From: Armatimonadota bacterium
GTDB taxonomy: Bacteria > Armatimonadota > UBA5829 > DTJY01
DNA: 64,000 bases
Assembly (NCBI GenBank): GCA_035528905.1
Contig: DATKXU010000037.1
Coordinates: 7,860-71,859 of the forward strand
Direction of reading: 5' to 3'
The notes under the pieces are model-generated. The model ran no database searches. It was not told the origin of the DNA and was given only the letters and a program-made list of their open reading frames with translations. Numbering within the stretch: position 1 is the stretch's first letter; the number at the start of each line of letters is the position of its first letter. Shown one piece after another: positions 4,714 to 42,040 of the stretch. Made by a program: the position numbers and the translations under genes.

Positions 4714-4810
4714 TGGCGGGAGTGTGTGGGAATCGAACCCACCCAGGACACTCTTCATGCCCTACACAGGTTTTGAAGACCAGGAGAGCCACCAGGCCCC
4801 ATCCACTCCC
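4714..4810 (-). tRNA. selC: tRNA-Sec (selC), anticodon UCA, 97 nt
   Basis: Reverse complement: GGGAGTGGATGGGGCCTGGTGGCTCTCCTGGTCTTCAAAACCTGTGTAGGGCATGAAGAGTGTCCTGGGTGGGTTCGATTCCCACACACTCCCGCCA. The anticodon loop CUUCAAA matches E. coli selC (ggaCTTCAAAtcc). It has a long variable arm (GGGCA/TGTCC stem), a T-loop GGTTCGATTCC, discriminator G and a CCA end. Its length is consistent with tRNA-Sec, and it lies adjacent to selA. Confidence 0.75.
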
Positions 4811-4923: not shown

Positions 4924-5604
4924 TCAGTTTGCCTGTGGGTAGTCCGGACCTTGCTGCGCCTGTTCCAGCTCTTCTGGCAGCTCAACTCGCTGGGCTTGCA
5001 CGACCGCGAGGAACGCCTCCACAACAATGGAATCGAACTGCGTGCCTGCGCTTCCTCGGAGTTCGTCCAGCGCCTCATCAAGCCGCATAGCATCTCGCCA
5101 GGGCACATCCGATACGAGCATATCGAACGTCTCTGCAACGGCAATGATGCGCGCGCCAAGGGGGATCTCATGACCTTTCAACCCGTCGGGATATCCCTTC
5201 CCATCGAACCTCTCATGGTGGTGCTTTATCATTGGCAGGCAGGGCTTCAACTCCTCGACGCGCTCAAGCATTCTGATCGCAATTGTGCTATGAAGGCGCA
5301 TGATCTCGAACTCGCGGTCTGTCAGCCGGCCGAGCTTCTCGACGATTTGTTTGGAGATGCCAACCTTTCCGATGTCATGCAGGATAGCGGCACGCCTGAG
5401 CGCAACTAGTTCCTTTTGCGGAAGATCGAGATGCTTGCCCATTGAAACTGCGTAGGCAGCCACACGATCACTGTGTCCGTCCGGTGCTCCCAGGCTCGCC
5501 GACCTCAGGTTCAACATTCCCATGAGGGCTTGTGTTTCGGATTTGATCGTCGGGGGCGTCGGGACATCAGGCTCAGGGTCTTCCGCCAGTCTCTTCATCA
5601 ACAT
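4924..5604 (-). CDS. HD-GYP domain phosphohydrolase (putative c-di-GMP phosphodiesterase)
   Basis: The translation carries LHDIGK...HHERFDGKGYPDGL, i.e. the HD and GYP motifs. Start is the ATG at 5602-5604. Confidence 0.75.
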   Translation of the reverse strand: MLMKRLAEDPEPDVPTPPTIKSETQALMGMLNLRSASLGAPDGHSDRVAAYAVSMGKHLDLPQKELVALRRAAILHDIGKVGISKQIVEKLGRLTDREFEIMRLHSTIAIRMLERVEELKPCLPMIKHHHERFDGKGYPDGLKGHEIPLGARIIAVAETFDMLVSDVPWRDAMRLDEALDELRGSAGTQFDSIVVEAFLAVVQAQRVELPEELEQAQQGPDYPQAN

Positions 5605-5668: not shown

Positions 5669-7081
5669 CTACGGGCGGAAAATTTCCTCTGCGGCGCGGA
5701 CTATGTGCTGGATCTCGTTGTCTTCGATGGTTCGCAGGTCCAGAAGGAATCGGTCATCCGCCACCCTGCCAAAGATTGGCGGTTCGGCCATACGAAACGC
5801 CTTGGCAAGGTCCGCAGCGCTCATGCGGACGGATGAGATCGCGAGGAGCTTTGTCGGCAGGTGCTCGCCAGGCAGCGATCCACCGCCGATCTCCGAGAGC
5901 CCGTCGGTTACCTCGGCCCCCGCTCTGTCTGCAGCAACCCTGGTGATTGCCCGCCGCAAGCGCGTCGCTGAGCGATTAATATCCGCCAGCGACCGGCTGA
6001 TGAATCTAAGCGTGGGGACAGCACTCTGGAGAGTCTCGGGATCGGTGTAAAGCCTAAGGGTGCTCTCCAAGGCGGCGACGGTCAGTTTGTCGATACGAAG
6101 AGCTCGCGCCATCGGATTTCCAGCCATGGCACCCACAACCTGCCCTCGCCCGACGATGAGGCCGGCCTGCGGGCCGCCGAGAAGTTTGTCTCCGCTGAAC
6201 ATCACGACATCCGCCCCAGCCTTGACGCTGTCCTGCACGAGCGGCTCGCCTCTTAGCCCAAAGCGCGTTACATCCACCAGTGCGCCGCTTCCAAGGTCTT
6301 CCGCGACCGGGATATTGCAGCGGCGCCCGAGTTGTACCAAGTCGCCGATGGGGACTTCACTCGTGAAGCCGACGATGCGGAAGTTGCTCGTGTGCACGCG
6401 CAGTATCAAGGCCGTCTGATCGGAGATGGCAGCCTCGTAGTCGTCCAGGCGGGTGTGGTTCGTCGTTCCCACCTCTACCAACCGCGCACCTGATCGAGCC
6501 ATTATGTCAGGGAGCCTGAATGAACCCCCGATCTCTACTAACTGCCCTCGTGAGACTATGACTTCCTTACCGTTCGCTAGCGTATTCAGAGCCAGCATGA
6601 CGGCGGCTGCATTGTTATTCACAGCGAATCCGGCTTCCGCGCCGCATAGCTCGGCTAGGAGCTTGCTGAAGTGTATATCCCGCGAGCCTCGACCGCCGGT
6701 CTCCAGGTTGGTCTCGAGGTTCGAGTGACCGGCAGCGACGGCATTCAGCGCCGCGAGAGTCGCTTCTGGCAGCACAGCACGGCCCAGACCGGTATGCAAG
6801 ATGACTCCGGTTCCGTTGATTGCTTTTCGAAGCGATGGACTGCTGAGCCGCAGTGCCAGGTCACGGGCCTGGTCCGCTATGCGTTTGGGCGATAGATCCT
6901 CCGCCGTCGGCATCGGGCCGTCCAAGACTCTGTTGCGAAGTTCATCGAGAGTTTGACGCACGGCGGTGACAACCGTGCTGCGGGGAACTCGCCCTGCCAA
7001 CTCCTTCAGAGCCGCGGTGTTCAGCAGTCTATCCACGGCCGGCAAGCTTCGCACAACCTCACGCGCCGTGTCCTTGGTCAT
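5669..7081 (-). CDS. selA: L-seryl-tRNA(Sec) selenium transferase (selenocysteine synthase)
   Basis: The 470-aa product carries SelA signatures (GTGVILHTGLGRA, FSGDKLLGGPQAGLIVG) in a PLP-dependent fold. Start is the ATG at 7079-7081, preceded by AGGAG. Confidence 0.9.
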   Translation of the reverse strand: MTKDTAREVVRSLPAVDRLLNTAALKELAGRVPRSTVVTAVRQTLDELRNRVLDGPMPTAEDLSPKRIADQARDLALRLSSPSLRKAINGTGVILHTGLGRAVLPEATLAALNAVAAGHSNLETNLETGGRGSRDIHFSKLLAELCGAEAGFAVNNNAAAVMLALNTLANGKEVIVSRGQLVEIGGSFRLPDIMARSGARLVEVGTTNHTRLDDYEAAISDQTALILRVHTSNFRIVGFTSEVPIGDLVQLGRRCNIPVAEDLGSGALVDVTRFGLRGEPLVQDSVKAGADVVMFSGDKLLGGPQAGLIVGRGQVVGAMAGNPMARALRIDKLTVAALESTLRLYTDPETLQSAVPTLRFISRSLADINRSATRLRRAITRVAADRAGAEVTDGLSEIGGGSLPGEHLPTKLLAISSVRMSAADLAKAFRMAEPPIFGRVADDRFLLDLRTIEDNEIQHIVRAAEEIFRP

Positions 7082-25015: not shown

Positions 25016-25065
25016 AAAGGAACGTTTGCAGTTTATCGTCTATGGTCTACGGTCCGATTTTCCGA
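25016..25065. repeat. Palindromic AGACCGTAGAC ... GTCTACGGTCC element (copy 3, convergent terminator position)
   Basis: AGACCGTAGAC at 25016-25026 pairs with GTCTACGGTCC at 25055-25065. The element overlaps the TAG stop of the GH57 gene and lies between two convergent genes. Confidence 0.55.
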
Positions 25066-25515
25066 CATCAGCCGGAATGCCTCTCCTGCCGCGAAATCCA
25101 CGAATTTCGCACACAGATTTGCATGCACGTTCTCTTTCTTGAAGCGCTCCCCGCCCTCTGGTGTTTGAAGGTCGCAGCCGATCAGATCGCGGCAGCGGAT
25201 GCTGTCGAACTCCTGGCGGAACGCCTTCATTGCTCGACTGGCTTTGGAATAGGTCGCCTCCTTAGCTGCTGTGTCGCCGCTGCTCTGCCTGCCGTACCTC
25301 AAACCCAAAGCCATTACCGCGCCAGTCAACGCCCCGCATACATCGCCGGTACCTCCCATACCACCTCCAAAGCCGGTTGCGATGCGCGGTATGCAAGACG
25401 CATCCATTCCGAGAGCCTGCACGAGGCTCATTAGCACAGACTCCGCTCAGTTGAATCCGCTGTTGAAGTAGCCGACTGCTGTCTTACTAACATCCGAACT
25501 TTGCACAGAAACCAT
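25033..25515 (-). CDS. C_GCAxxG_C_C family putative redox-active protein, selenocysteine-containing (in-frame TGA at 25447-25449)
   Basis: The ORF-track ORF 25033..25437 starts just after an in-frame TGA. Reading through the TGA from the ATG at 25513-25515 gives MVSVQSSDVSKTAVGYFNSGFN-U-AESVLMSLVQALGMDASCIPRIATGFGGGMGGTGDVCGALTGAVMALGL... The Sec falls at the first conserved Cys of the family (as I recall it, family consensus GFNCAQSVL). A 7-bp-stem hairpin (GAGUCUG...CAGGCUC) begins 4 nt after the UGA. selA and tRNA-Sec lie ~20 kb away. Confidence 0.7.
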
Positions 25516-25538
25516 CTTCCTCCCAGAATCCTAAGCGG

Positions 25539-27757: not shown

Positions 27758-30700
27758 ATGTCCGATAGAGAGCTGAGACTAGGCATTGATGTAGGATCGG
27801 TAAGTGTGAACGTGGCGGTTCTGGGCCGGGCGGCAGAAGTCCTGGAAACGCAGTACATCCGGCACAAGGGCCGGCCCATGCAAGTCGCCGCGGATGCAAT
27901 CGAGGAGATCGCGGCCAAGTATGCCGGGCGAATCAGGGGCTGTGCCGCAACCGGGATGGCCGGCAGGCTCGTTGCTGATGCGCTCGATGGCGTGTTCGTG
28001 AACGAGGTCATCGCACAGGCCGCCGCTGCCGCTTATCTTCACCCGGAGGCCCGGACGGTCATCGAGATCGGCGGCGAGGACTCCAAACTGATCTTCCTGA
28101 AGCCCGCGGAGGGCGGCGGCGCCGCCAGCATTGCCGATTTCCAGATGAATACCGTCTGCGCCGCCGGCACGGGCTCGTTCCTCGACCAGCAGGCCAGCAG
28201 GATGGGCTTGACGATAGAGGAGTTCGGGCAGCTCGCGCTCAAGTCGAAGAACCCGCCGCGGGTAGCCGGTAGATGCAGCGTCTTCGCCAAGAGCGATATG
28301 ATCCACCTCCAGCAGAAGGCCACTCCGGTCCACGACATCGTTGCCGGCCTATGCTTCGCACTGGCGCGCAATTTCAAGAGCACGGTCGGCGCTGCCCGCA
28401 AGTTCGAGAAGCCCATCGCCTTCCAGGGAGGCGTAGCGGCGAATCCGGGCATCGTGAAGGCGATGGAAGGCGTGCTCGGACTGTCCGAGGGCGAGCTCAT
28501 CATACCCAAGGAGTTCGGCTGTACAGGGGCCATCGGTGCTGTGCTGGTTGCGATGCGCACGGACGCAGCCCGCGAGTGCGAGCTCAGCGCGCTTGGCCGC
28601 CTGCGCGACGCCGGATTGGCCACACAGGAGAAACCAGCGGCGGAGAAGCCTCTGAAGATCGAGAAATCCGCGCTTCCGAAGGACCAGCCGTGCGCGCCGC
28701 CTCCTCATGAGCGCGTCCCCGCCTATCTCGGCGTGGATGTAGGTTCGATAAGCACGAATGTCGTAGTCCTCGACGCGAACAAGCAAGTTCTAGCAAAGCG
28801 CTATCTGATGACCGCGGGGCGCCCCATCGAGGCAGTGCGCCAGGGTCTGACAGAGGTCGGGGACGAGATCGGCCATCTGGTGGATATCCGCGGCGCATGC
28901 ACGACGGGCTCGGGCCGCTACCTCATCGCCGACTTTATAGGCGCAGACGTTGTCCGAAACGAGATCACCGCGCAGGCCAGAGCCGCTGGGGAGATTGACT
29001 CTGACGTTGACACCATCTTTGAGATCGGCGGCCAGGATTCGAAGTTCATCAGCCTGCATCAAGGGGCCATCGTGGACTTCGAGATGAACAAGGTCTGCGC
29101 CGCGGGCACAGGATCCTTCCTTGAAGAGCAGGCCGAGAAGCTCGCGATCAACATTAAGGAAGAATTCGGCAGGCTCGCGCTCTCTTCCGACTCGCCCCTC
29201 AACCTGGGGGAGCGGTGCACAGTGTTCATGGAGACAGAGCTGGTCCGCCATCAGCAAATCGGCGCGCCTACCGAGGACCTGGTCGCCGGGCTGAGCTATT
29301 CGATAGTCAGAAACTATCTGAATCGGGTCGTCGGCACGAAGCGTGTTGGCGACAGAATATTCTTCCAGGGTGGAGTTGCGTCGAACAAGGGCGTCGTGGC
29401 GGCATTCGAATCCGTCACCGGCAAACCAATCATCGTTCCGCAGCATCACGAGGTCACAGGCGCCATTGGGTGCGCCTGCATCGCAATGGACGAGGACAAA
29501 GGCGAGGGAAGCAGCTTCAAGGGGTTCGACCTGAGCCAGAAGCATTACGAAATCTCCTCGTTCGAGTGCAAGGAGTGCGCCAACCACTGTGAGATCAACC
29601 GTGTCGTCGTCGAGGGTGAAAAGCCGCTCTTCTACGGCAGCCGGTGCGAAAAGTACGACGTTGACCGTCGAGCGGCGGAGAAGGCCCAATTCCCCGATTA
29701 CTTTGCCGAGCGGGACGAGATGCTCCTGGAGCCATATACAGCCTCAGAGGCTACCAGCCCCGGCGCGATTCGCGTGGGCATTCCGCGCGCTCTGCTGTTC
29801 TACGAGCTTTATCCATTCTGGCAGGCGTTCTTGAAGGAGTTGGGCTGCGAGGTCGTCGTATCCGACGCAACGACCAAACGCATCATTCACGACGGCGCAG
29901 AGCGATCGGTAGCAGAGACCTGCTTCCCGATGAAAGTCGCGCTCGGCCATGTGCTGAACCTCCTGGACAAGGAGATTGACTGCATTTTCCTGCCGAGCGT
30001 CATCAATCTGCCGCTGCCGGACAAACGCATGACCGACAGCTTCGTCTGCCCATACGTGCAGAGCTTAGCCTACACGATCAAATCGGCGGTGGATTTCACG
30101 GCGGCGGGCATCAAGGTTCTGGAGCCGGTGGTCTATCTGCAGCTTGGCATGAAACACAAGATCAAGGCGCTCCAGCGGATCGGGCGTGATCTGGGGCGCT
30201 CGAAGGCTGAGGTAGCGCGCGCCGTCGCCGCGGCCGGGGAGAATCTCGCTAAGTTCCAGGCGAAACTGGCCGCACGAGGCAAGGAAGTCCTCGCCGAAAT
30301 CCCCCGGGGCGAAAAGGCGGTAGTAGTCATCGGCCGGTCATACAACACCTGCGATTCCGGCGCGAACCTGGAGATCCCGAAGAAGCTGAACAAGATGGGC
30401 GTGCGCTGCGTCCCAATAGACTTCCTGCCGCTCGATTCGGTTCACCTCCCTGATGAGTGGAAGAACATGTACTGGCGCTACGGGCAGAAGATTCTCTCGG
30501 CGGGCGAAATCGTGGCGGATGACAACAGGCTTTACCCGCTCTATCTGACGAACTTCGGCTGCGGGCCGGATTCGTTCGTGCACAAGTTCTTCCGCGAGCG
30601 CCTGGGCAGCAAGCCCTGCCTGGTCATCGAGGTTGACGAGCACAGCGCGGATGCCGGCATGATAACCCGCTGCGAGGCGTTCATGGACAGCATCGCCAAT

Positions 30701-31972
30701 ACGGACGGCTCCGCGGCCGGCGGACGATTCTTCCGCCCTGTCAACATCGAGAAAGGGACTCACCGGACTGTGCTCATTCCAAATATGAGCGCTCACGCTT
30801 ACGCACTGGCCGCAGCGTTCGAGGCGTGTGGCATGCGCGCAGAGGTACTTCCCCTGCCCGACGAAGAAACCCTCGAATGGGGCCGGCAATTCACGACCGG
30901 CAAGGAATGCTTCCCGTGCATAGTGACCACCGGCGACATGGTGAAGTTTGCGAAGCGGCCGGACTTCGACGGGAACAAATATGCGTTCTTCATGGGTGGA
31001 TCGGGCGGGCCGTGCAGATTCGGCCAGTACAACGCCCTCCAACGCATGGTGCTCGACCAGATCGGTTATCCGGATGTCCCAATCTACGCGCCGAACCAGG
31101 CATCCAGCTTCTACAACGACATAGGCATTGTCGGCCGAAAGCTCCTGGTGCAGGGCTGGAAGGGCATCATCGCCATGGACTTGCTTGAGAAGTGCGTGCG
31201 CGAGACGAGGCCGTATGAGGTAGCCAAGGGATCGGCAAATGAGGCATTCGAGCGATCCGTAATGCTGGTCTACGAAGCCATTAAGAACCAGACAGACCTT
31301 GTACACGCGCTTCGGGAGTGCCGGAAGCTCTTCGAGGCCGTTCAGGTGGATCGCAGCGTGCAGAAGCCGATCATCGGCTACATCGGCGAGTTCTACGTTC
31401 GCGCCAACGCCTTCAGCAACCAGGACCTCATCAGCAAGATCGAAGAGCTGGGCGGAGAGGTCTGGGCCGCGCCGATTCTGGAATGGTTCCTCTACCGCAA
31501 CGTCCGCCGGAGCATGCGCGCCCGGCTCGCAGGCGACTTCAAGTTGTGGATCAAGAACCATTTGCAGGACTACATCATGAGGCGCCAGGAGCACGAACTC
31601 GCGCATGTATTCCACGGCTTCCTGCGGAATCTGGACGAGCCTTCAAGCGACGAGGTTCTCGATATGGCCGGGCCTTACGTCCACAGGAGCTTCGAGGGCG
31701 AGGCGATCATGACGGTCGGCAAGGCGGTGGACTTCATCAAGAAGGGCCTGTCCGGCGTCGTGGCCGTGATGCCGTTCACGTGCATGCCGGGGACGATTGC
31801 GAACGCGCTCTTGAAGCGGGTGCGCGAGGAGCTGGGCGAGTTCCCGTTCCTGAACATGGTCTACGACGGCGTCGAGCAGGGCACGGACGCGACGCGCCTG
31901 GAAGCGTTCACGCACCAGGCCCGCGAGTACATGAAGCGCCAGGCCGGGGATATGGCGCCTGTTGGAAAATGA
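27758..31972 (+). CDS. Fused acyl-CoA dehydratase activase-like protein: two BadF/BadG/BcrA/BcrD-type ATPase domains followed by two 2-hydroxyglutaryl-CoA dehydratase D-component (HgdB)-like domains
   Basis: The ATPase motifs LGIDVGSVSVNVAVL and LGVDVGSISTNVVVLD start two repeated domains, each containing CAAGTGSFL. The C-terminal ~750 aa is DUF2229/HgdB-like. Total length is 1404 aa. Confidence 0.75.
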   Translation: MSDRELRLGIDVGSVSVNVAVLGRAAEVLETQYIRHKGRPMQVAADAIEEIAAKYAGRIRGCAATGMAGRLVADALDGVFVNEVIAQAAAAAYLHPEARTVIEIGGEDSKLIFLKPAEGGGAASIADFQMNTVCAAGTGSFLDQQASRMGLTIEEFGQLALKSKNPPRVAGRCSVFAKSDMIHLQQKATPVHDIVAGLCFALARNFKSTVGAARKFEKPIAFQGGVAANPGIVKAMEGVLGLSEGELIIPKEFGCTGAIGAVLVAMRTDAARECELSALGRLRDAGLATQEKPAAEKPLKIEKSALPKDQPCAPPPHERVPAYLGVDVGSISTNVVVLDANKQVLAKRYLMTAGRPIEAVRQGLTEVGDEIGHLVDIRGACTTGSGRYLIADFIGADVVRNEITAQARAAGEIDSDVDTIFEIGGQDSKFISLHQGAIVDFEMNKVCAAGTGSFLEEQAEKLAINIKEEFGRLALSSDSPLNLGERCTVFMETELVRHQQIGAPTEDLVAGLSYSIVRNYLNRVVGTKRVGDRIFFQGGVASNKGVVAAFESVTGKPIIVPQHHEVTGAIGCACIAMDEDKGEGSSFKGFDLSQKHYEISSFECKECANHCEINRVVVEGEKPLFYGSRCEKYDVDRRAAEKAQFPDYFAERDEMLLEPYTASEATSPGAIRVGIPRALLFYELYPFWQAFLKELGCEVVVSDATTKRIIHDGAERSVAETCFPMKVALGHVLNLLDKEIDCIFLPSVINLPLPDKRMTDSFVCPYVQSLAYTIKSAVDFTAAGIKVLEPVVYLQLGMKHKIKALQRIGRDLGRSKAEVARAVAAAGENLAKFQAKLAARGKEVLAEIPRGEKAVVVIGRSYNTCDSGANLEIPKKLNKMGVRCVPIDFLPLDSVHLPDEWKNMYWRYGQKILSAGEIVADDNRLYPLYLTNFGCGPDSFVHKFFRERLGSKPCLVIEVDEHSADAGMITRCEAFMDSIANTDGSAAGGRFFRPVNIEKGTHRTVLIPNMSAHAYALAAAFEACGMRAEVLPLPDEETLEWGRQFTTGKECFPCIVTTGDMVKFAKRPDFDGNKYAFFMGGSGGPCRFGQYNALQRMVLDQIGYPDVPIYAPNQASSFYNDIGIVGRKLLVQGWKGIIAMDLLEKCVRETRPYEVAKGSANEAFERSVMLVYEAIKNQTDLVHALRECRKLFEAVQVDRSVQKPIIGYIGEFYVRANAFSNQDLISKIEELGGEVWAAPILEWFLYRNVRRSMRARLAGDFKLWIKNHLQDYIMRRQEHELAHVFHGFLRNLDEPSSDEVLDMAGPYVHRSFEGEAIMTVGKAVDFIKKGLSGVVAVMPFTCMPGTIANALLKRVREELGEFPFLNMVYDGVEQGTDATRLEAFTHQAREYMKRQAGDMAPVGK

Positions 31973-33614: not shown

Positions 33615-33652
33615 TAGAGAAATCTAGCAGATTCGCCCATGGGGTGACTGGT

Positions 33653-35698
33653 ATGAGACGGAAATCGCCGGACGAGCGGAAAGCCAGGTACGAAAAACTG
33701 ATCCTCGGGCCGCCGGGCATCACCGCCGTGAGCGACCACGCCCTGGCACACGAAGAGTATTACCTCGACACCTTCGATTTGACATACCGGCTGGGGCCGG
33801 TCCTCGACATCATCCGCCATCCGAAAACCCGCACGCCGATGTGCATCGCCGTTTACGGCGGCTGGGGCACCGGCAAGACCTCCGCCATGAAGTGGCTCCA
33901 CGGCCTGCTGGAAGACTCGAATAAGTCGGGCACCTCCGAAGCCAAAATGAGGGTGAAGCCGGTCTGGTTCTTTCCGTGGAAGTACCGCAGCAAGGAGGAT
34001 GTCTGGCGGGGCCTCATCTCCGAAGTCATAATCAACAGCATAGATGTGAGCAAGGCCAACCGCGTGACCATCGCCAACGCAGCTAAGCAGTTTGGGATGT
34101 TCCTGGGGAGGGGTTTCGTCCACGTGATGGCAGGCCTGACGCTCAAGGCCAAGGCTCCGACAGGGGCGGGCGAAGCAGAACTGGACCTGTCGCGGCTTGA
34201 GGACATAATTGCTGAATACCGCGAAATCTCTCACCCCGAGAAAGCTTACCTGAACGAATTCGAGTCGTCCCTCCAAAACTGGGTGTCGAGCACTCTCCTT
34301 CGCAACGAGCGCATGGTTATCTTCATTGACGATCTCGACCGGTGCATGCCGGATGTGGCGTTGGAGGTGCTGGAGGCGCTGAAGCTCTACCTCAACATCG
34401 AGAAGCTCGTGTTCGTGGTCGGCGTTGACCAAAAAGTCATTGATCCGCTGGTGAGCGAATACTACAAGCGACTCGGGCTGCCGGGCGACAAGAGCAAGGA
34501 CTACCTGGCGAAGATGTTCCAGATAGAGGTCGAGCTCGCGCCTCACGAAAGGCAGATCAGCGGTTTCCTGGACCAGCAACTGGAAACCATCGAGTACTGG
34601 CGGAAGCACCTGGAGGACTACGAGCGCGATATCTTCCGGAAGGCGATACTGCAGCTTGCCGAGCAGAATCCGCGCGAGGTCAAGCGCCTCATCAACAGCG
34701 CGCTGATGGCGGGCGCCGGGTGGCTGATGCTGACCGAACCCGGCAGCGAGGAGAATGAGATAGGCTTCAACCAGGCGCTCCAGTACTTCTTTATCCGCAA
34801 GGTTCTGGACGTGGGGTACACCAGGGCATCGCTTCTCACGACCGACCTGGGCGATCGGTTCTTCAGGGAGTGGTCGGAGATCGTGTCGAGCCGCAGAGAC
34901 AACGAGCACTTCCCGCGCACCCTGGATGTCCCGAAATCATTCATCGAGCAGCAGCGCGCCAGCGCCGGCAAGCGCCCCGGCACAGCAACGGACGAGGAAA
35001 AGCCCTCGGCCGAAACCAAACCCTCCGACTTCGATCCCACGCAGGTTGCAGGCGGTGTCTACTACAGCATCCTGACGAACAGCCTGTATACGGACTTGCT
35101 TCCGCTCCTGGCGGATGAACTACTCGGAGAGCTGATGCAAATTCCGTACCCGGCGGAGACGAAGGCGATCAGCGCTGCCATCGGCACGGCAAAGGACGCC
35201 GAGATCATTCGCGAGGCCGTTGCCCGTGAGCTAGGAAAGAAGCCGGACCAATTGAGGGCTGAGGATTACGCCAATCTGGAGGCGCTTAATCTCAGAGACA
35301 CCCAGGTGAGTGACGTCGAGCCGCTCAGGGGGCTCACCAATCTGGAGGCGCTTAATCTCAGAGACACCCAGGTGAGTGACGCCGAGCCGCTGAGTCGCCT
35401 CACCAATCTGCAGGAACTCAGTCTCTCGAGCACACGGGTGAGCGACATCGAGCCGCTGAGTCGCCTCACCAATCTGCAGGATCTTGGTCTCACTGACACC
35501 CAGGTGAGCGACATCGAGCCGCTCAGGGGGCTCACCAACCTGCAGGAGCTCCGTCTCTCGGGCACCCAGGTGAGCGACATCGAGCCGCTCAGGGGGCTCA
35601 CCAACCTGCAGGAGCTCTATCTCTCCGGCACCCAGGTGAGCAAGGAACAGGTGAAGTCCCTTAAGGAAGCGCTGCCCGGTCTAAAAATCACGGTGTGA
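33653..35698 (+). CDS. KAP-family P-loop NTPase fused to C-terminal leucine-rich repeats
   Basis: The Walker A motif is CIAVYGGWGTGKTS and the KAP-type Walker B is VIFIDDLDRC. The C-terminus carries six 22-aa LRR units of the form LTNLQELxLSxTQVSDIEPLxG. Confidence 0.8.
   Translation: MRRKSPDERKARYEKLILGPPGITAVSDHALAHEEYYLDTFDLTYRLGPVLDIIRHPKTRTPMCIAVYGGWGTGKTSAMKWLHGLLEDSNKSGTSEAKMRVKPVWFFPWKYRSKEDVWRGLISEVIINSIDVSKANRVTIANAAKQFGMFLGRGFVHVMAGLTLKAKAPTGAGEAELDLSRLEDIIAEYREISHPEKAYLNEFESSLQNWVSSTLLRNERMVIFIDDLDRCMPDVALEVLEALKLYLNIEKLVFVVGVDQKVIDPLVSEYYKRLGLPGDKSKDYLAKMFQIEVELAPHERQISGFLDQQLETIEYWRKHLEDYERDIFRKAILQLAEQNPREVKRLINSALMAGAGWLMLTEPGSEENEIGFNQALQYFFIRKVLDVGYTRASLLTTDLGDRFFREWSEIVSSRRDNEHFPRTLDVPKSFIEQQRASAGKRPGTATDEEKPSAETKPSDFDPTQVAGGVYYSILTNSLYTDLLPLLADELLGELMQIPYPAETKAISAAIGTAKDAEIIREAVARELGKKPDQLRAEDYANLEALNLRDTQVSDVEPLRGLTNLEALNLRDTQVSDAEPLSRLTNLQELSLSSTRVSDIEPLSRLTNLQDLGLTDTQVSDIEPLRGLTNLQELRLSGTQVSDIEPLRGLTNLQELYLSGTQVSKEQVKSLKEALPGLKITV
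35279..35650 (+). repeat. Six tandem 66-bp near-identical repeats encoding the LRR units
   Basis: The repeats start at 35279, 35345, 35411, 35477, 35543 and 35609. Neighbouring copies differ at only a few positions. Confidence 0.75.
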
Positions 35699-38312: not shown

Positions 38313-39155
38313 CTACCAGCTTCGGGCAACCAGCGGTATCCCAGATCGCTCCCGGAGCGAGATCGCGCCGCTGCTGCATCCGGCTCGGCACACTCCGCAT
38401 CCGTAACATTTCAGCGTGTCAATGTACGCCTTCCGGTCGGCCCAGCTAAAGCCCATTGCGCCGAACTGGCAGAGCCGCATGCAAGCGCGGCATCCAGTAC
38501 AAGAATCACGGTCAAGCACCGCGACATACTCGCCCTTGAACATCATCTTCACGCCGTGTCCCACCGTGGCCCTCATGGCGGCGCAGTCGGAGCGGTCGCA
38601 GTTGCAGATACCGCCGATAAAAGGCGTTCCGAACGTCCAGACGGAATGCATCAAACCGTCCTTCTCCAGCTCTCGCATGAAGCTCAGGGCCTCAGCGGGC
38701 GTCAGCTTGTCCATACCGTCAGTATCCGGGCCGCGCCAGTAGCTCGGGTCTACTACCTCACCGATCATGCCAGCGTCTGGGGACGCGCTTACACCCAGGC
38801 AGCAGTGAACCTCTCTTCCCACAGTGAGCCTCCGGCAGACGCACGGCACGCGGACGATGGAATTCACTATCTGGAATATGCTTTCGATATCCTCGATCGG
38901 CACCACCTGGCCGAAATGCCCTTTCTTGTGCCTGAGAGTCAAAAATGAGGCGACCAGATGCCTGACAGGACGCGGCAGCTTGGGAAGTACCTTCTCCATG
39001 CGCTCCAAGTCCCTGCCCAGCCCGTCCTCAAAGTAATTGAACCACCACTGGGTTTCCTTCCGGCGATGGACGTCAGCCGCCAAATCGTCGGAGTAGTTCT
39101 TCGCCTGCAGGTACCATTTCTTGCCGTCACCATGCTTTGCGCAGAATTCACACAT
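38313..39155 (-). CDS. Cys-rich 4Fe-4S dicluster-domain protein of unknown function
   Basis: The C-terminal region has CTGCRACMRLC and CYGCGVCRAGC (two CxxCxxCxxxC-like motifs). There are additional N-terminal Cys pairs (MCEFCAKHGDG, PCVCRR, HCC). Confidence 0.5.
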   Translation of the reverse strand: MCEFCAKHGDGKKWYLQAKNYSDDLAADVHRRKETQWWFNYFEDGLGRDLERMEKVLPKLPRPVRHLVASFLTLRHKKGHFGQVVPIEDIESIFQIVNSIVRVPCVCRRLTVGREVHCCLGVSASPDAGMIGEVVDPSYWRGPDTDGMDKLTPAEALSFMRELEKDGLMHSVWTFGTPFIGGICNCDRSDCAAMRATVGHGVKMMFKGEYVAVLDRDSCTGCRACMRLCQFGAMGFSWADRKAYIDTLKCYGCGVCRAGCSSGAISLRERSGIPLVARSW

Positions 39156-39208
39156 AGCAGGTCAATAACCTCCACCCACGCTGGATGCCAGCTCTCCAGG
39201 ATTCCTCT

Positions 39209-42040
39209 CTAGCCGTGTGTCTCGGCATGTTCATCCGACCGCCGGATGACATACTCGTCGCCGCACCTAACTCCGATCAGATTAACCGGACGCTGCGCGG
39301 AGATGCAGACTCCGGGCATCTCCAAATGCCGACAGCGGTAGGCCAGGAACTTCTCCGGCGCTTCGCTGGATACCCCATAGATCGCGGCGAGCATTTCTCC
39401 CTCGAAGGTGCACTTGGGATCAGCGTACTTTCCCATGCAGACGAAGCATTTCTTGTCCGCGGAAGCGATCTCCGCTGCGGTTTTACCCAATCGGCGAGAG
39501 TCAGAGAAGCTTCCGTCGGCAAACACGCCCAGGAAATCCGCCTTCCTGCGCCCGGCAATACTGAATGAGAGATACGGTTGTTCCTCTTTCCCAATGTATC
39601 CTGGTAGAGTCTCGAGTTCAGGCTTGGAACCGCTGAGGAGCCAGAGATTCAGCCCGGAGTCGCCGTCCCCGATGGACACCTTGCCATCCTCCACCCGGAA
39701 TTCGCCCCTCGGGTGAACCAGCCACGCATAAGTATGCGGATCCTCGGCTCGCAAGCGATCCCAGACAACGTAGATTCCGTCATCAAGGAACGCCACGCCG
39801 CGATGCCAACGGCTGATGATGTCCTGATACGCATCCGTCAGGTCGGCAGCGGCGAGTCCCGCTCCATCAGCAGACAGGAAATCGGTAATCTTGCCGTCGA
39901 GGCGCCACTGCCGCTGTCCATCTATCATCACGACGTTGTGCGCCTTGGTGTGTTTTAGAAATGTCTGGTATATCGGATCGGCATAGGCAATCACACCCGG
40001 GTCTATTACGCGCTGCCGACCCCGATGGTAAATAACGAACTGCCCAAGGTCCTCGTGGCCGCGGCCCTGGTGAAACTTGGCTGCGAAGAGCGAATCCGTT
40101 TTCCCCCAGCCGGTGCGGAATATCACCCAGCCGATATCCCGGAAATGCCTGATCTTCGGAAGGTCCTCCGGGCTTTCTGCAGGAACCGAAGGATCATATG
40201 CCAAAAGGGAGTGTATGCTGTCGAACCCGGCGTGCGTCTCGTCAAGCGCCCACTTGACCTTCGGATTTCGCGTATACCGCGCGACAAGAGAATACAAATC
40301 AGCGGAAAGGTTGCTGCCATCTCCGCTATCGTTGAAATTCACCATCACATAGCCGCGTTCAGCGTCGTGGGAAAGGCCATAGAGCGGCTCGTCGAGGATG
40401 TCCTTTCGGATGTCTGGAGAGAGATCGGCGCCTGTCACCCGCTTCAGCGCGTCAACGAAGTACATGGCGTTGACCAGGCCGTAGTGGATGTAGCCTATGC
40501 TCTCCACATAGCCAGCATCTTCTCCCCAGTTCGGCTCAGTGTATGCTAGATACTCGAAGCCATCCGCAGCGAGGCAGTGTATGTTCCACACATCACGTCC
40601 GCGGTAGACGAAATACCAGCGAATCGCGTCCTCTAACAGCCGCACCCAGCGATGAGCCTCGGGCTCCTCACCCAAAACGGCCAGCGCCGCAATGCCCGCC
40701 CCGCCGTTGCAGACAGCATGCCAGTTCCCAGCCGCGAGCTGATGCCGCTCGACCTGCGAGTAAGTATCCGGGTTGGCCCAATCGTGGATCAGAGGACGGA
40801 TTCCGAGCCGCACCAAACCCTCTCGAATCACGTTCCGATCCTCGTCCGAAAGCCAGTTGTAGAGCCAGTCGTATGCCGTACCGATGCCCTTGCACATGCC
40901 GCCGGTTTCGAGTGTGGCCCTCCACTGCGGGTTGAAGCATTTCGGGTCGCCGAATTGAAGTCCGAGCCACCTGCTGTATGAGACAAGTTTGAGCATAATC
41001 CGCCTGGCTGCAATCGCATATCGCTCATCATCAGTGATCACGTAGGTCAAAGCAAGCGGCTCGAGCTGACCCCTTGTGACTTCTGCGTTGAGCTTGTGAA
41101 AGCCCCCATGCTGACCAGGCTGCCCGAGCACTTCCTCCTCGGAAGGCGCCTCGGCGTCGAGCGCCTCATCGGCTTTAGCCTTTATCTCGGCAAATACCGC
41201 TTGCGCCCGTGGATCGCTCCTTATCTTCTCACGCAGTGCTTCCAGCTCAGTGCGGTTAAAGAATAGGCAAGGATGTTGTGCATAGCTCAACTCGTCCGTC
41301 AGCTTCCGATCAGAGATAAGAACGCACCTGGGCGCAGAGTAGCGGCTCAGCTTACCTGTGCAGTCCGCCGCCCTGACGCGCCACCAGATAGTCCCCGCCT
41401 GCGTGAGAACACCCTTCGGTGGTGTGAACTCCGCACCATAGATCGGCGCGAAACGACGAATCCCCTTGTCAAACTCGGATGTGGAAGCTACTTGAAGCTG
41501 ATAGTGATCCGCCCCCCTAACGGGAAGCCACCGAAGCATGATCTCATCAGGGTGCGCCTCGGCCAGGTCAGCCGGCCAGAAGCCCGAGGGTTGAGGGAGA
41601 CGGCAACTGATTCTGACAGCGGTTACTATGGGCAACGGCCCGTCCTCGCCGGACAGCTCGATCCTGTATTGAATGAGCTGTGCGGCCGCTGCCACCAGCA
41701 TCATCGGCTCGCTGCCCTGAATCCTAATCCGGGCCCCGCTTTTCCGATATGACGCAGACCAACGCGCAGACTCTAACTCCTCGGCTGACGACGCAAAGCG
41801 AGTCCTGATTCTTATCCTGCCACGCCGGCCATGTTCTGCATCCCAGAAGATGCGCTCCCAGGCCACGGCCTGCCCTGCATCAATTGGCGCCGAGATCAGG
41901 CTGCCTTTCCCGTGCCCAGCCAGGGTCAATCTGCCGCCAGCGACGACAGCCTGCCCTTCGAGCGTGCCTGATTCAAACGCATGCGCGTCGTGAATCCATT
42001 CGTTTTTCGTGAGAGTGCCATGCATGCCTTGCTCCATCAA
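39209..42040 (-). CDS. Heparinase II/III-like polysaccharide lyase family protein (with DUF4962-like N-terminal region)
   Basis: The 943-aa product has the alpha/alpha toroid plus beta-sandwich organisation. WLVHPRGEFRVEDGKVSIGDG is typical of the heparinase II/III C-terminal domain. Confidence 0.6.
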   Translation of the reverse strand: MMEQGMHGTLTKNEWIHDAHAFESGTLEGQAVVAGGRLTLAGHGKGSLISAPIDAGQAVAWERIFWDAEHGRRGRIRIRTRFASSAEELESARWSASYRKSGARIRIQGSEPMMLVAAAAQLIQYRIELSGEDGPLPIVTAVRISCRLPQPSGFWPADLAEAHPDEIMLRWLPVRGADHYQLQVASTSEFDKGIRRFAPIYGAEFTPPKGVLTQAGTIWWRVRAADCTGKLSRYSAPRCVLISDRKLTDELSYAQHPCLFFNRTELEALREKIRSDPRAQAVFAEIKAKADEALDAEAPSEEEVLGQPGQHGGFHKLNAEVTRGQLEPLALTYVITDDERYAIAARRIMLKLVSYSRWLGLQFGDPKCFNPQWRATLETGGMCKGIGTAYDWLYNWLSDEDRNVIREGLVRLGIRPLIHDWANPDTYSQVERHQLAAGNWHAVCNGGAGIAALAVLGEEPEAHRWVRLLEDAIRWYFVYRGRDVWNIHCLAADGFEYLAYTEPNWGEDAGYVESIGYIHYGLVNAMYFVDALKRVTGADLSPDIRKDILDEPLYGLSHDAERGYVMVNFNDSGDGSNLSADLYSLVARYTRNPKVKWALDETHAGFDSIHSLLAYDPSVPAESPEDLPKIRHFRDIGWVIFRTGWGKTDSLFAAKFHQGRGHEDLGQFVIYHRGRQRVIDPGVIAYADPIYQTFLKHTKAHNVVMIDGQRQWRLDGKITDFLSADGAGLAAADLTDAYQDIISRWHRGVAFLDDGIYVVWDRLRAEDPHTYAWLVHPRGEFRVEDGKVSIGDGDSGLNLWLLSGSKPELETLPGYIGKEEQPYLSFSIAGRRKADFLGVFADGSFSDSRRLGKTAAEIASADKKCFVCMGKYADPKCTFEGEMLAAIYGVSSEAPEKFLAYRCRHLEMPGVCISAQRPVNLIGVRCGDEYVIRRSDEHAETHG

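Follow-up and report, generated by a model that had tools for sequence, protein, structure and literature searches.

In a 64-kb stretch of DNA (hereafter referred to as the window), a minus-strand open reading frame (ORF) listed at 25033..25437 opens with a GTG codon that lies 9 nt past a TGA. The question raised by this locus is whether the TGA terminates translation, or whether it specifies selenocysteine (Sec) within a longer gene, as an initial annotation of the window had proposed. Here, we examine the reading frame, its relatives, the RNA structure downstream of the UGA, the Sec-decoding machinery and the likely fold of the product.

A reading frame with a single in-frame TGA

Translation of the minus strand from the ATG at 25515-25513 to the TAA at 25035-25033 gave a frame of 160 codons, in which TGA 25449-25447 is the sole internal stop. 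Read through this codon, the product consists of Sec, at position 23, and 159 standard residues, and runs ...GYFNSGFN-(TGA)-AESVLMSLVQALG...GFGGGMGGTGDVCGALTG... Re-translation gave the same read-through sequence as that reported in the initial annotation, with the rest of the frame intact. The gene has the following features:

25033..25515, minus strand: predicted complete selenoprotein coding sequence of the C_GCAxxG_C_C family (translation, and matches to the PF09719 and TIGR01909 profiles)
25447..25449, minus strand: UGA codon predicted to be read as Sec, residue 23 (alignments; same TGA in relatives)
25519..25524, minus strand: Shine-Dalgarno-like GGGAGG, 3 nt upstream of ATG 25515 (read from the sequence)

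The locus was present in four independent assemblies from different samples (L007-L010), with 0 mismatches over 513 nt, TGA included. Given that these four assemblies are identical, the TGA is not a sequencing or assembly error. In every assembly carrying it, the gene had been called as a fragment of 132-134 amino acids (aa), as in the truncated database form P0001 (132 aa). No signal peptide is obvious in the window protein, and no paralogue of it was found within the 64-kb window. As judged from the sequence and from the comparisons described below, 25515..25033 on the minus strand is very probably one gene, encoding a cytoplasmic selenoprotein of 160 residues that belongs to the C_GCAxxG_C_C family and whose UGA would be decoded via a downstream Sec insertion element (SECIS).

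The TGA falls on an invariant cysteine of the family

The read-through product scored 103.2 bits against PF09719 (cut-off 27) and 84.7 bits against TIGR01909 (cut-off 47.4), matching profile positions 1-112/113. Profile position 1 corresponds to a point two residues before the TGA and is reached only with read-through, the match of the truncated ORF beginning at profile position 8-10 with a PF09719 score (89.6 bits) that is still above the cut-off. When the protein was aligned with 15, 29 and 80 homologues, the TGA fell in the column of the first invariant Cys, of which the family has four, and the four-Cys pattern of the family (C ... CGAxxG ... C ... C) is formed in the window protein by U23, in place of Cys, together with C60, C108 and C135. 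Every full-length homologue has Cys at the U column, in the motif F-N-C-A-E. The other three invariant residues are encoded as follows:

25336..25338, minus strand: Cys60 codon, second invariant Cys, C-G-A-x-x-G (invariant column; aligned to the CGAL Cys of 1H21)
25192..25194, minus strand: Cys108 codon, third invariant Cys (invariant column in the alignments)
25111..25113, minus strand: Cys135 codon, fourth invariant Cys (invariant column; aligned to a 1H21 Cys in a weak second HMMER segment)

Since positions 23, 60, 108 and 135 are invariantly Cys in the family and the TGA lies at the first of these, Sec23 would substitute for the first invariant Cys. The homologue alignments thereby confirm the placement of the U proposed in the initial annotation. 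Its suggestion that the 22 codons before the TGA represent the family N-terminus was likewise upheld, these codons being conserved and in frame in the orthologues and needed for the match to reach profile position 1.

The same TGA is found in relatives from several phyla

The nearest database proteins are short (115-126 aa, 49-62% identity) and start just past the Cys column. At the DNA level, all six of the short orthologues that were inspected (L001-L006) share the in-frame TGA, set within G-F-N-TGA-A-E and preceded by an open and conserved upstream frame, xx[YC]FxxGFN. Amongst 80 relatives from contigs representing one genome per species, 77 have Cys at the U column and three have TGA, namely an Armatimonadota MAG (L011, 63% identity), a Dehalococcoidia MAG (L036) and a Chloroflexi MAG (L040). 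The nearest relatives of the window gene are in Armatimonadota MAGs, at 63% identity or less, and the host probably belongs to an Armatimonadota-like lineage, as judged from the relatives of this one gene.

Metagenome contigs were scanned with a DNA pattern covering only the codons of F-x-x-G-F-N-TGA-A-E, which makes the scan independent of any hairpin. This yielded at least 120 matches, and approximately 95 of the 120 listed were family genes with a TGA at the same column; the remainder of those listed were chance matches with short ORFs behind them. Most of the approximately 95 listed Sec-form genes fall in one large clade, the named database members of which belong to Desulfobacterales, Thermodesulfobacteriota and Deltaproteobacteria. 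Among the matches listed, nearly all public entries from this clade either are cut down to 124-125 aa or carry Trp through mistranslation. The mistranslated "full-length" entries P0121, P0122, P0126, P0128 and P0130 read GFNWAES, with Trp at the Sec UGA, and apparently result from gene calling under genetic code 4/25. The other large-clade entries listed mostly carry the name "C_GCAxxG_C_C family probable redox protein" or the label "partial". The Sec-form subfamily numbers hundreds of proteins, and those inspected are, almost without exception, truncated in the databases.

A conserved SECIS-type hairpin downstream of the UGA

The initial annotation had called for a SECIS-like fold downstream of the UGA, and such an element was found, with compensatory changes in orthologues:

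25413..25429, minus strand: predicted SECIS upper stem and apical loop, GAGCCU-CGUGC-AGGCUC (bSECIS criteria; pairing in 11 orthologues)
25402..25441, minus strand: predicted extended SECIS stem-loop with a G-U-rich lower stem (minimum free energy (MFE) fold of the 53-nt context)

Published criteria for bacterial SECIS elements ask for an apical loop 3-9 nt long on an upper stem with 4 bp or more, a G within the first two loop positions, a UGA-to-loop distance of 16-37 nt and an MFE of -7.5 kcal/mol or lower (PMC13188914). The window element agrees with these, having a 6-bp stem and a 5-nt loop, CGUGC, with G at loop position 2. Its apical loop begins 23 nt past the UGA and carries G-U at loop positions 2-3. 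The upper hairpin alone folds with -7.7 to -8.9 kcal/mol, a narrow pass, borderline against the limit of -7.5. In the window, the upper stem closes with a C.C mismatch, relatives showing C-G or G-C at this pair.

In 11 ungapped sequences from the clade of the window gene, 97.4% of cells in the upper stem were paired, and shifting the pairing partner by one column reduced this value to 45-58%. Compensatory changes were observed at two upper-stem pairs (C-G to G-C, and A-U to G-C); the 11 orthologues are related, the codons for S-L-V-(E/Q)-A-L also constrain the sequence, and most upper-stem pairs are invariant, so that the covariation rests on these two pairs. In the 53-nt context, the MFE structure (-15.8 kcal/mol) consists of the conserved upper hairpin on a lower stem, in which 25441-25436 pair with 25407-25402, and 25434-25433 with 25410-25409. 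When six orthologues were folded, the conserved architecture was the MFE structure in each, with a probability of 1.00 and energies of -18 to -25 kcal/mol. Across the extended stem, 88.5% of cells were paired overall, the lower stem alone giving 80.7%, which we consider moderate support.

As a control, the same hairpin search was performed after the TGY codon of Cys-form homologues and on shuffled Sec-form sequences. A hairpin with an (N)G[G/U] loop and an energy of -6.5 kcal/mol or lower was found in 83% of 95 distinct Sec-form genes; the corresponding values were 4% for 74 Cys-form genes and 3% for the shuffled sequences. The mean energies of the best hairpins were -8.8, -1.2 and -1.2 kcal/mol, respectively. 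The Sec-form hairpins are short, with a G-U-N apical loop that begins 19-24 nt past the UGA. Their stems read GAGCCU(C/G)-GUN-(G/C)AGGCUC in the clade of the window gene, CUCCUUGA-GUU-UCAAGGAG in the large clade and, in the Chloroflexi gene L040, CUGGCC-GUG-GGCCAG; further metagenome genes have other stems (e.g., CCUGGC-GGUCU-GCCAGG). Between clades, the shape of the hairpin is thus kept while the stem sequence differs. Like canonical bacterial SECIS elements (E. coli fdhF; bSECISearch consensus), the window element is a stem-loop inside the coding sequence, immediately 3' of the UGA, with a small apical loop carrying G-U; it differs from them in having no sequence similarity and in its mismatched closing pair. 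The hairpin had no Rfam match, either at the gathering threshold or at E <= 10.

The hairpin put forward in the initial annotation, GAGUCUG (25443-25437) and CAGGCUC (25419-25413) separated by 17 nt, is indeed present and starts from the fourth nucleotide after the UGA, but it is not the conserved SECIS. The two structures use the same 3' arm and differ in the 5' arm, which in the conserved element is GAGCCU at 25429-25424. The locus could nevertheless encode a selenoprotein whose working SECIS is this other pairing, in an extended form of -15.5 kcal/mol, given that it is the MFE structure of a 45-nt fragment and, in the 53-nt context, makes up approximately 31% of the ensemble, as compared with 0.69 for the conserved upper stem. 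The stability of the 45-nt fold does not, however, exceed that expected by chance (z = -1.5, with 16 of 200 shuffles as stable; z = -0.2 for a 66-nt fold around the hairpin). Moreover, its loop is 11-17 nt long, has no G at either of its opening two positions and begins 13 nt past the UGA, outside the published model. In the 11 orthologues, only 70% of cells were paired, with no covariation and with six of the seven pairs broken somewhere, and the pairing had a probability of 0.00 in the six folded orthologues. We therefore regard this hairpin as an improbable SECIS and continue with the conserved element.

Sec-decoding machinery in the window

Profile and tRNA searches identified both of the decoding components, selA and tRNA-Sec, that the initial annotation had reported in the window:

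4714..4810, minus strand: tRNA-Sec, anticodon UCA (ARAGORN; Rfam RF01852, 74.1 bits versus a gathering threshold of 47)
5669..7081, minus strand: selA, L-seryl-tRNA(Sec) selenium transferase (TIGR00474, 580.5 bits versus 267.9, full length)

Between the two lies an HD/HDIG-domain response-regulator-like gene (4924-5604), which is not selB. Neither selB nor selD turned up within the 64-kb window when 18 long ORFs were scanned against NCBIfam, and tblastn searches of the window with E. coli SelB and SelD probes gave best E values of 0.046 and 2.1, respectively, neither of which is significant. Given the presence of selA and tRNA-Sec, it is unlikely that selB and selD are absent from the genome. 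In the mechanism that we propose, the ribosome would start at ATG 25515 behind GGGAGG, and the SECIS just downstream would cause Sec-tRNA(Sec) to be delivered at UGA 25449-25447. The tRNA would be that encoded at 4714-4810, its Ser being converted to Sec by SelA from 5669-7081, and the SECIS would recruit a SelB presumably encoded outside the window. Actual selenium insertion at the UGA, as well as SelB and SelD, is what we infer from these components.

Alternative readings of the TGA

The TGA might be a true stop, in which case the product would be the shorter annotated protein, initiated at GTG 25437 or ATG 25431, and the 22 upstream codons would either form a short separate ORF or be untranslated. 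Gene callers treated it in this way in four assemblies (P0001, 132 aa), and the truncated ORF alone exceeds the Pfam cut-off (89.6 bits). Nonetheless, an invariant Cys, one of the four, and the fold's first helix are both missing from this short form, every orthologue conserves the amino-acid sequence of the upstream frame, and the Shine-Dalgarno sequence stands before ATG 25515. Furthermore, more than 100 relatives share the same TGA together with a SECIS-type hairpin, whereas the Cys forms lack the hairpin. Termination at the TGA is accordingly very improbable. That the TGA arose from a TGC/TGT Cys codon in a pseudogene, or through a sequencing error, would need a single base change, yet four independent assemblies from different samples are identical, the TGA is kept in orthologues down to approximately 50% identity and in other phyla, the SECIS co-occurs with it and the rest of the frame is intact. 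Conservation of both the TGA and the SECIS across phyla is incompatible with a pseudogene, and we find this reading scarcely conceivable. Decoding as Trp or another standard residue, whether by genetic code 4/25 or by general read-through, might seem to be indicated by those large-clade entries that are translated as GFNWAES, but the W in these entries is explained by the wrong code having been used in gene calling. In addition, TGA is the stop of 5 of the 23 long ORFs in the window, among them the gene directly upstream, homologues invariably have Cys, never Trp, at the aligned position, and selA and tRNA-Sec are present; we attach almost no weight to a standard residue at this position. Sec at residue 23 is thus the reading that we retain.

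Gene neighbourhood and other observations in the window

The selenoprotein gene follows a glycoside-hydrolase-like gene at a distance of 23 nt downstream and faces a GH57 gene in convergent orientation. Neighbours of the closest Sec-form relatives encode an ADP-ribosylglycohydrolase and a methyltransferase, and those of the large clade a Trp/Tyr-tRNA synthetase and a histidine kinase. Sec-form neighbourhoods are conserved within clades and not between them, and because they differ between clades they are uninformative on a functional partner. At four of four metagenome loci of the Desulfobacterota-type Sec clade (L092, L098, L113 and L143), a class-I Trp/Tyr-tRNA synthetase gene is situated directly downstream on the same strand, with a HAMP/HisKA histidine kinase gene divergently upstream in L092, L098 and L113. 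At L036:2443-3243, in the Dehalococcoidia MAG, the Sec-form gene is followed by a same-strand gene for a DUF1847 protein (200 bits).

Eight other TGA-interrupted ORFs with SECIS-like hairpins were considered in the window, none of which had homology support. A split HdrA-like selenoprotein at 38313-42040 was rejected, the region consisting of two unrelated frames. The minus-strand ORF at 38313-39155 (280 aa) is similar in its C-terminal part to the ferredoxin-like end of HdrA2, with a score (43.7 bits) far under the cut-off. This ORF is read in another frame than 39209-42040 and is not its TGA-split tail. On the plus strand, 33644-35698 encodes a 684-aa protein with a KAP-type NTPase region and C-terminal leucine-rich repeats. 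The KAP-type region resembles the QatA anti-phage ATPase (100 bits versus a cut-off of 600), and the product may be a defence-type NTPase. Also on the plus strand, 27758-31972 encodes a 1404-aa fusion of BcrAD_BadFG (activase-type ATPase) and DUF2229 (L007 gene table). Stop codons of the 23 long ORFs in the window are skewed to TAG (14 TAG, 5 TGA and 4 TAA).

Predicted fold and possible metal centre

The AF2 model of the Cys homologue P0008, which is 56% identical, contains eight helices (pLDDT 94.5). With its 160 residues, the window protein fits the small (approximately 140-150 aa), single-domain, all-helical type of the family, the helices being taken from the P0008 model. In HMMER alignments, the CGAL Cys and, in a weak second segment, the fourth Cys align to Cys of 1H21; the alignment covers two of the four family Cys, and the column of the Sec site lies outside it. 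We take 1H21 to be a split-Soret cytochrome c with a non-haem iron centre of the [2Fe-2S] type held by four Cys. The domain is predicted to have the same fold as the domain that holds the non-haem iron in split-Soret cytochrome c. The window protein itself was rejected as a split-Soret cytochrome: unlike the latter, it has no CxxCH haem motif in its 160 residues and no haem domain, scores 24.3 bits against NF047622 (cut-off 400) and carries Sec for the first Cys, only the fold of the N-terminal domain being common to both.

In view of this fold, and on the basis of the homologue's model and of the iron centre of 1H21, Sec23, Cys60, Cys108 and Cys135 most likely hold together a small Fe-S-type centre. 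Sec23 would be either one ligand of the centre or a redox-active residue beside it, and the protein presumably acts as a stand-alone electron-transfer or redox protein. We tentatively suggest that Sec23 could be a direct selenolate ligand of an Fe-S centre, of the [2Fe-2S] type as in the split-Soret domain. If this were true, a widespread subfamily would represent a natural, stand-alone selenium-ligated iron-sulfur cluster, its potential tuned by the Cys-to-Sec swap.

It is also possible, though doubtful, that Sec23 is not a metal ligand but a catalytic selenol, forming a selenenylsulfide with a partner Cys in a thiol/selenol oxidoreductase. Thiol-type redox chemistry is the main use of Sec in bacterial selenoproteins (reviews including PMC13188914 and PMC9312934), and the family is named "putative redox-active protein". 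The protein has no CxxU or UxxC motif, however, and the nearest conserved Cys is 37 residues away. Moreover, the sole structural relative is a domain whose entry title names an iron centre, and four invariant Cys in a helical domain of approximately 150 residues are typical of a metal site.

Relationship to catalogued selenoproteins and significance

Sec-containing members of this family have been described previously. NCBIfam gives TIGR01909 the product name "C-GCAxxG-C-C family (seleno)protein", and a related NCBIfam model is named "HUGP/GUXX-star fusion selenoprotein". The C-GCAxxG-C-C family protein is a listed selenoprotein family, with a form 1 and a form 2 (PMC13188914; PMC9312934). Form 1 (example accession MGD8741185.1) is a "Putative redox protein" of the Olavius delta1 symbiont with a predicted SECIS (Zhang & Gladyshev 2007, PMC1976440), and form 2 (WP_012158890.1) is attributed by a 2026 review to a 2008 ocean-sampling study. 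Neither the 2007 nor the 2008 selenoproteome paper specifies in its text the Cys that Sec replaces in the two forms. The large deltaproteobacterial clade, with U at the first Cys, plausibly corresponds to form 1. The window protein resembles the catalogued Sec proteins in belonging to the same Pfam/TIGR family, in having a Sec/Cys pair at a conserved Cys and in the SECIS directly downstream, and the large Desulfobacterota clade has its U at the same column; the window copy differs in coming from another lineage and in the sequence of its SECIS stem.

The initial annotation had presented the gene as a Cys-to-Sec variant of a poorly characterised redox family. The exchange at the first Cys stands, but Sec forms of the family are not new, having already been catalogued. 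The locus is a mis-annotated selenoprotein gene, a fresh member of an already catalogued selenoprotein family of which Sec forms have been known since 2007, and for this reason it opens no new biological question.

The chief value of the finding lies in annotation, since read-through restores one of the four invariant metal/redox residues of the protein. It also documents that Sec is used, with tRNA-Sec, selA and one or more selenoproteins, by a lineage whose copy of this gene has its closest relatives in Armatimonadota MAGs. Finally, the family offers a comparative example in which the shape and G-U loop of a bacterial SECIS are kept while the stem sequence is replaced between clades.
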